Source of the DNA: a virus
Taxonomy: Duplodnaviria > Heunggongvirae > Uroviricota > Caudoviricetes
Length of the DNA stretch: 9,683 nucleotides
Strand: one strand, 5' to 3'
IMG/VR virus record: IMGVR_UViG_2531839374_000010
Coordinates: 1 to 9,683 of that record
Shown here: piece after piece, positions 1,459-2,621 of the stretch
How the letters are laid out: every line of letters starts with the position of its first letter
Position numbering within the stretch: position 1 is the first letter of the stretch
Notes under the pieces: generated by a model
Database searches by the model: none
Seen by the model: the letters and a program-made list of their open reading frames with translations, nothing else
What the model was told of the DNA's origin: nothing
Position numbers and translations under genes: made by a program

Positions 1459-2621
1459 TTACACATCATTAGTACGTTCCTTATTTCTTGACTGGGACAA
1501 ATTTGGGACCGATGGGTTCAGAATCGAGTCTATTTGCCGTGCGTGTTCGGTAAGGTGATTAGGTGCGAGGTGAGCATATCGACGAACCATTTCGATAGAC
1601 TCCCAGCCTCCCATTTCCTGTAACACTGATAACGGGACTCCGGCTTGAACCAGCCAACTTGCCCAGGTGTGTCTCAAGTCGTGAAATCTGAAATCATCAA
1701 TACCTGCTCGTCTCAGCGCCGCTTTCCAGGCTGTGTTTGCGTCATACCGCATCTTCCTGACTGTTGGCGCTTTCGTTCCGTCTGGTTTGGTACAGCTTTC
1801 CTTATACACAAATACCCAACGGTGATGATTCCCGATTTGTTTTTTCAATACGCGACATGCAGTATCATTCAGCGCAACGCCAATTGCGCGGTTTGATTTA
1901 CTCTCTTCCGGGTTTATCCATGCCACCCGGCGCTGCATGTCTATTTGTTGCCATTCAAGGTTGATGATGTTCGAGCGTCTTAAGCCTGTTGCAAGTGCAA
2001 ATTCAACAACAGACTTTAATGGCTCCGGACATTCATCAATCAGCCTTTGTGCTTCATGAGGCTCCAGCCAGCGGATCCGTTTATTCTTTGGTTGAGGCAC
2101 TTTAATAATTGGTGCCTTATCCAGCATTTTCCATTCACGCTCTGCGGCTCTTAGCAGGGCCTTTATAAATGAAAGATGCGTAGCCTTCGTTGCAACGGAC
2201 GCTGGTTTTGGCGTGTATTCTGGAACAGGTTTCCCTTTTTTCTGCATGCTTCTGCCCTGAGTTTCCAGTTTTCCTCATGACGCCGGTTCGTCATTTTCTG
2301 CATTGCTGAATAAATTTTTGATTCAGTAATGTCTCTTAGTTGCATTCCTGCGAAATGTTGAAGCCAGAATCCGATCCGGCTTTTGTCATCGTCCAGTGAT
2401 TTTTTATGTGCTTTCTCTTCAAGCCACCTGACACACGCTTCCTCGAACGTTATATCAGGAATTTCACCAAGTTTGCTGACCCGCCATGCTTCAGCCTTTA
2501 GCTTGTCATGGAGTTCTGTCGCCTGCCTTTTGTCCTTTGTTCCAAGAGACTGTTTAAATCTTTTACCGTTCGGCAATGTGAAACTGGCGTACCATATTTC
2601 ACCTCTGCGGAAGAGTGACAT
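1459..2621 (-). pseudogene. int: P22-type phage tyrosine integrase, split into two frames by a 1-nt frame change in an A6G3 tract (plus 2233-2241)
   Basis: The N-terminal frame (2621..2163, [14 protein letters not shown]...) and C-terminal frame (2247..1459, ...[10 protein letters not shown]...RRYAHL with the catalytic Tyr region) join into one integrase if one nucleotide is restored in the AAAAAAGGG run. ATG at 2621 is preceded by a GAGGA ribosome-binding site. The stop TAA at 1459-1461 is only 14 nt from the thrW 3' end. Confidence 0.8.

Follow-up and report, generated by a model that had tools for sequence, protein, structure and literature searches.

The window, by which we mean the whole stretch of 9,683 nucleotides analysed here, carries the tRNA gene thrW next to a prophage whose integrase gene (int) is encoded in two ORFs on the minus strand (Table 1). 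The two integrase ORFs meet at AAAAAAGGG (2241-2233, minus strand), a run of six A residues (2241-2236) followed by GGG (2235-2233). In the upstream frame the codons read AGA (2243-2241) AAA AAG GGA, which puts the heptamer A_AAA_AAG (2241-2235) in the phase that a -1 tandem slip requires. This heptamer has the X_XXY_YYZ form of programmed -1 signals, is in phase with the ATG at 2621 and is accompanied by a downstream ORF in the -1 frame. As both frames stay open around the junction, any -1 slip within 2274-2166 (minus strand) would yield a full-length integrase. A sequence-only reading of this DNA had already placed the overlap of the two frames at the minus-strand run at plus 2233-2241, noted the phase of A AAA AAG (AGA AAA AAG GGA) and proposed that a -1 slip gives a contiguous integrase; the sequence, the codon reading and the shifted translation bear these statements out, and the repaired protein has an exact public counterpart, P0033. 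The motif AAAAAAG occurs six times in the window against 3.1 expected, a count reached in 16 of 200 shuffles, so that it is not enriched.

Table 1. Features of the window, with positions counted from its first letter
Feature	Position	Strand	Basis and remarks
proA	1-1254	+	window start
tRNA-Thr (CGT), thrW	1369..1444	+	ARAGORN; Rfam tRNA 71.8 bits
Downstream integrase ORF, 262 aa, internal ATG, -1 frame	1459..2247 (2247->1459)	-	Pfam PF00589, E=1.6e-47
Upstream integrase ORF, 152 aa	2163..2621	-	ATG at 2621, stop 2165-2163
Both integrase frames open, 109 nt	2166..2274	-	reading-frame check
A6G3 tract, site of the 1-nt deletion; A7G3 in intact alleles	2233..2241	-	alignments, haplotype table
A_AAA_AAG heptamer, in phase with the upstream ORF	2235..2241	-	sequence
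xis, excisionase, HTH_17	2498..2932	-	Pfam; overlaps the int start as in SfV and SfIV
IS600, orfA 3112-3399, orfB 3449-4267	3052..4310	+	interrupts the prophage gene beside xis (orf28/yfdT-like)
198-aa prophage gene, premature stop at codon 47	5731..6327 (6327->5731)	-	second point-mutation pseudogene
IS3-family element	8443..9683, runs off the window end	+	cuts the prophage after a cII-like gene

The split integrase and its prophage

The frame break separates the domains of the integrase unequally. Residues 1-128 of the upstream ORF are authentic Int and cover the arm-binding region and part of the core-binding region, and the last 24 residues form an out-of-frame tail. The split thus falls at residue 128/129, and the gene lacks the single uninterrupted ORF of a functional gene. 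The Phage_integrase catalytic domain, which spans residues 184-355 of the repaired protein (PF00589, E=3.2e-48 in Pfam), lies wholly inside the downstream ORF. In the Pfam search, the 152-aa fragment matched DUF6538 at a sub-threshold score only, which leaves an independent function of the fragment unsupported. In addition, the ATG of the 262-aa ORF (2247) is preceded at 7 nt by AGGG (2258-2255, minus strand), a possible weak internal ribosome-binding site. Initiation there could possibly give an N-terminally truncated integrase fragment independently of frameshifting; this 262-aa fragment would have no arm-binding region and an incomplete core-binding region.

The 3' end of thrW corresponds to the att core of SfV/P22-type phages, and the same core adjoins int in SfIV, SfV and P22; by its sequence, the thrW 3' end is the left junction of the prophage. 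Together with the catalytic domain and similarity over the full length, the positions of the att core and of xis assign the integrase to the tyrosine recombinases of the SfV/SfIV/P22 type that act at thrW. The remainder of the prophage bears further lesions. Collinearity with intact prophages ends at 8442, where an IS3-family element begins that we take to be IS911-like by its OrfA sequence, and the window contig ends inside this element, short of its far side. The intact prophage of E. coli 401651 (L001), in other respects collinear with the window, has no IS600 and carries an intact copy of the 198-aa gene (L001 11067-11663). The insertion of IS600 at 3052-4310, the truncation by the IS3-family element at 8443 and the nonsense codon in the 6327->5731 gene are the marks of relaxed selection, and they agree with the sequence-only reading, which had taken the element for a decaying prophage. 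Judged from these features, the prophage is an IS-riddled remnant.

Loss of one A and the recurrence of tract changes

Alignment to the P22 and SfV integrases, a comparison that the sequence-only reading had proposed, showed that the gene is a single ORF in both phages. The site reads AGG AAA AAA GGG in SfV and AGG AAG AAT GGG, without an A run, in P22, and AGA AAA AAA GGG in E. coli 401651 and SfIV, where it also lies in a single ORF; the window alone among these has AGA AAA AAG GGA and a split gene. Every top int-xis match is one base longer than the window, and the alignment puts the extra base in the A run. Moreover, int of the window differs from that of E. coli 401651 (L001) by only one mismatch and one gap over 1164 nt. 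At the break, therefore, an intact allele differs from the window by tract length alone, as is the case for a pseudogene made by a homopolymer indel. Restoring one A gives a 387-aa protein that exactly matches P0033, a protein found on 116 public contigs and named Shigella boydii Sb227 integrase by its source. The repaired window protein carries no further changes relative to this intact Sb227 allele, which fits a recent deletion and is compatible also with continued purifying selection.

The C-terminus carries a lineage marker. At 1474-1476 (minus strand), the window encodes ...NKERTNDV against ...NKEGTNDV in the E. coli and SfIV alleles, a change of Gly to Arg six residues before the stop codon. 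Because the intact Sb227 allele also has NKERTNDV, this change predates the deletion.

The intact alleles also account for the heptamer. Removing one A from AGA AAA AAA GGG can yield AGA AAA AAG GG alone, so the in-phase heptamer is a by-product of the deletion. Furthermore, one and the same homopolymer accounts for the indel and supplies the slippery sequence, and the co-location of frame break and heptamer is hence not independent evidence of recoding. In genome scans, an in-phase slippery heptamer is often to be expected where a frame breaks within a poly-A run, and it should not be counted as evidence for programmed frameshifting.

The sequence-only reading had offered a 1-nt deletion or a homopolymer error as the simplest cause of the break. 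The missing nucleotide stands, as the intact relatives have one more A, and between the two causes a real, inherited deletion is favoured by the recurrence of the allele. The window is 100% identical to contig AMGB01000020.1 of GCA_000296305.1 (L016), and the same haplotype with A6G3 is present in GCA_000211955.2 (L015), GCA_049895545.1 (L017) and a separate Logan assembly of run SRR364094 (L018); the 262-aa product is named "integrase [Shigella boydii 3594-74]" by its source. An under-called homopolymer in a genome that is truly A7, with an intact integrase, would be in keeping with runs of seven, at which 454 and nanopore data are typically prone to error, and with the origin of several other loci that encode the same frameshift product (L007, L009, L013 and L014) from assemblies with many split genes. 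It would likewise suit the date of the source assembly and of L015, which we assume from their accessions to be about 2011-2012, a period when 454 data were common. Against such an error, A6G3 on the window haplotype is not confined to L016: L015, whose IS-mediated structure is different, L017 and the independent Logan assembly L018 carry it too, and A6G3 is found as well in short-read-style metagenome assemblies (L005 and L008, with MEGAHIT-style and SPAdes-style contig names). As assemblies that differ in local structure share the allele, a deletion inherited within a Shigella lineage is favoured, and the A6G3 allele of the window is probably real. For the window haplotype, the exact frameshift-specific proteins in public assemblies led us to largely reject a sequencing or assembly error, which we hold to be highly unlikely.

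The structure of L015 bears on the later fate of the prophage. In this locus the segment matching window 3039-5585 is missing through an IS-associated deletion, and the remainder (window 5586-8964) has the opposite orientation with respect to int. Beyond the remnant come IS1 and then genes with ABC-transporter domains, which we read as host genes, and a second att core was not found in the 8.8 kb on the far side of the remnant. From this arrangement, IS-mediated rearrangement evidently went on in the L015 lineage after the deletion in int, and an integrase would probably have no attR partner there.

To place the window allele among its relatives, exact-allele queries of 81-83 nt that differ in tract length alone were compared with 5,426 complete E. 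coli genomes; for queries of 81-83 nt, the ≥99% identity band can only mean an exact match. The segment is present in 1273 complete E. coli records. The intact A7G3 form was found as an exact 82-mer in 1080 of these 1273 records, with an intact integrase annotated among the matches listed. By comparison, A6G3, A7G2 and A8G3 were each found in one record of the 1273, namely ETEC1734, Z1323HEC0475 and A3, respectively; RefSeq labels all three copies "frameshifted", and in ETEC1734 an IS66 element interrupts the gene as well. The two-ORF form therefore accounts for ~0.1-0.2% of the complete E. coli genomes with the gene, each variant being a singleton. Across the 1273 E. coli records and in P22, which is without the A run, neither the two-ORF layout nor the shift site is conserved among homologues.

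At the protein level, the exact 152-aa frameshift product is present on 117 contigs (NCBI, ENA and Logan), in prophages with differing early regions, which is more than one sporadic event would account for; the product of the +1 (A8) form is absent from the same protein collection. Two molecular forms encode the identical 152-aa protein in ten of these loci (L005-L014): A6G3 in L005, L007-L010, L013 and L014, and A7G2 in L006, L011 and L012. The haplotype is SfIV-like in all ten and is set apart from that of the window by 14-16 sites in int; L008 equals SfIV at every variable column apart from the gap. The tract lies ~380 nt into int in these loci (int at locus 8001-9163), and changes in tract length are also seen in L020 and L021. 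On the simplest reading of these haplotypes, at least three independent -1 events have occurred at the tract (A6G3 on the window haplotype, A6G3 on the SfIV haplotype, and A7G2), plus the A8 insertion; the A7G3 tract thus appears to be a recurrent indel hotspot and not a conserved signal. For some of the four loci in assemblies with many split genes, A6G3 is probably a homopolymer assembly error. The excess of -1 over +1 products could in principle reflect tolerance of -1 alleles that can be rescued, but deletion-biased homopolymer mutation, long-read assembly errors and clonal sampling would produce it just as well.

The int heptamer as a frameshift site

Besides the int heptamer, two IS elements in the window carry A_AAA_AAG at sites that permit a direct comparison. 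In IS600 the heptamer (3363-3369) is preceded by TT, lies in phase with orfA and has the look of a programmed -1 site of the IS3 family; the 90 nt after it are predicted to fold at -23.1 kcal/mol. In the IS911-like element, the heptamer at 8766-8772 is preceded by GGAG (-6.4 kcal/mol) and followed by a predicted structure of -23.7 kcal/mol over 90 nt. Both structures begin within a few nt of the heptamer. Downstream of the int heptamer, four folds of 30-90 nt gave z-scores of -0.72 to +0.39 against shuffles, none of them a significant structure, and the sole stem is of 4 bp (GGAA...UUCC, -2.9 kcal/mol), which confirms the absence of a strong stimulator apart from a 4-bp stem stated in the sequence-only reading. 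Signals of the dnaX and IS3-family type have a Shine-Dalgarno-like element ~10-14 nt before the heptamer; at int, an AGGG lies 13 nt upstream, where the best duplex with the 3' end of 16S rRNA is weak at -4.3 kcal/mol. These bases are common to all aligned intact alleles except P22, which has AATGG at the same columns, so that nothing suggests their selection together with a frameshift. An Rfam search of the whole window at E<=1 returned the tRNA alone and no frameshift element. In terms of predicted features, the int site has just the heptamer in common with the IS600 and IS911-like sites.

Taken together, these features speak against a selected form of recoding, in which a programmed -1 frameshift at A_AAA_AAG would set a low, tuned level of integrase, as in the OrfAB proteins of the IS3 family or in dnaX. 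The in-phase heptamer, a shifted product that is exactly the wild-type integrase and the presence of -1 products on 117 contigs but of +1 products on none in the large protein collection are what such recoding would give, and the weak AGGG, 13 nt upstream, stands near a dnaX-like spacing. Nevertheless, the two-ORF form is confined to singletons among the gene-carrying complete E. coli genomes, the A run is missing in P22 and shorter in SfV, the upstream AGGG is common to the aligned intact alleles other than P22, and the element that carries int is a decayed remnant. With downstream folds and Rfam giving no support and the Shine-Dalgarno-like match a weak one, we rejected a programmed frameshift, which is hardly credible here. 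A reversible contingency switch, in which the A7G3 tract would turn the integrase on and off by slipped-strand mispairing and so lock and unlock the prophage, draws on the same tract from another side: at least four independent changes in tract length (A6G3 on two haplotypes, A7G2 and A8G3) attest to its mutability. A switch would leave both states common, whereas 3 of 1273 records have an OFF variant, a very low share. A tract of 7 nt is also short for efficient phase variation in an enteric bacterium proficient in mismatch repair. In addition, the tract is not conserved across the integrase family, and the prophage in the window lineage bears further, irreversible damage. Such a switch is as implausible as programmed recoding.

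We are therefore confident that the split int is an ordinary pseudogene, an SfIV/SfV-type integrase at thrW that has lost one A, and not a programmed frameshift gene. The sequence-only reading had likewise preferred a pseudogene, and the rarity and lack of conservation of the split allele, together with intact relatives that have one extra A, are on its side. As the most likely course of events, replication slippage on the A7 run would have dropped one A in a Shigella lineage and split the 387-aa gene into ORFs of 152 and 262 aa. The deletion turned AGA AAA AAA GGG into AGA AAA AAG GGA and so created, in phase and unselected, the most slip-prone heptamer of E. coli. As a regulated gene, int most likely no longer works. 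In E. coli, tRNA-Lys is inherently prone to slip on A_AAA_AAG. At the int heptamer, a small fraction of ribosomes would accordingly be expected to shift to -1 and make exactly the wild-type integrase, and such leakage, a possibility that the sequence-only reading had kept, would be incidental, without known consequence.

Published systems give a scale for this leakage. In a lacZ system, heptamers without stimulators reached at most ~10x a background of 0.055% (PMC4066793). Single-base deletions in lambda cI are suppressed at a level of ~10% overall in E. coli; in one of the two mutants, FS8, suppression takes place mainly at an unprogrammed A_AAA_AAG, its peak site, and mutating the overlapping heptamers of FS8 cut suppression ~7-fold (PMC10861913). 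By analogy with these reports, ~0.5-10% of the ribosomes on this mRNA may, by unselected -1 slippage, make integrase with the wild-type sequence. Slippage of RNA polymerase on A6 is expected to be minor, because the bacterial cases cited in a review have runs of 9 A or T (PMC5009743). By its likeness to the cases in that review, slippage at int would belong to the "compensatory/adventitious" class and not to the selected signals (PMC5009743).

The -1 alleles (A6G3 and, less cleanly, A7G2) could be leaky and not null, since slippage would restore the exact wild-type protein, and they could persist at the hotspot for this reason. The preponderance of -1 products on contigs is compatible with such persistence, which is nevertheless very unlikely. 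If it were true, leaky -1 alleles might be tolerated or transiently favoured: the prophage would excise at a very low rate, the integrase would not be lost outright, and the alleles could revert by replication slippage. The -1 alleles at the A7G3 hotspot offer natural material for the study of non-programmed frameshift suppression. In the literature titles and abstracts searched, nothing specific was described on a frameshift in Shigella thrW integrases.

Comparison with known systems

Among frameshift systems, dnaX and the OrfA/OrfAB genes of the IS3 family (IS911 and, by analogy, IS600) use the identical in-phase A_AAA_AAG to enter the -1 frame. However, their sites have stimulators and a two-ORF layout in all copies, whereas the int site is without significant structure and is a rare derived allele. 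In lambda cI FS8, a 1-nt deletion lies beside or within a slippery run, and low-level slippage can restore the frame, as is possible at int (PMC10861913). Similarly, the G7 run of the herpesvirus thymidine kinase undergoes "compensatory" frameshifting at a homopolymer indel, as is also possible at int (PMC5009743). The leaks in lambda cI and herpesvirus were measured, that of herpesvirus with a demonstrated benefit; by comparison, the leak at int is inferred, and neither a benefit nor a substrate for recombination is evident.

The integrase itself is closest to those of the serotype-converting Shigella phages that integrate at thrW. Over int-xis, the window is 97.9-98.3% identical at the nucleotide level to SfIV, SfV and SfII and 97.0% identical to SfI over 93% of the query, and it is 99.8-99.9% identical to thrW prophages in several E. 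coli genomes. P22 is more distant, with 81% nucleotide identity over int-xis and 89% amino acid identity between P22 Int and the repaired protein over all 387 residues. The P22 type named in the sequence-only reading is thus right in outline, and the gene is more precisely of the SfIV/SfV/SfII thrW type (~98% at the nucleotide level). The gene order is likewise shared with these phages: int adjoins the thrW 3' end with its att core, and xis overlaps the start of int. Nevertheless, the window copy differs from those of SfIV, SfV, SfII and SfI in lacking one A and being split. Its early region, unlike that of the Sf phages, is interrupted by IS elements, and the gtr serotype-conversion genes, located after attP in the phages, are missing on this side of the window prophage.

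The nearest counterparts of the split allele are the three copies in ETEC1734, Z1323HEC0475 and A3, which share with the window the same gene at the thrW locus and a 1-nt change in the same tract, and which are annotated as "frameshifted" by NCBI PGAP. They arose by events independent of that in the window and lie on other prophage backbones. The split integrase is hence of an already known kind, a frameshifted pseudogene of a well-known family of which RefSeq already labels such copies, and its correct annotation is a frameshifted integrase pseudogene of an SfIV/SfV-type remnant at thrW and not a recoded gene.
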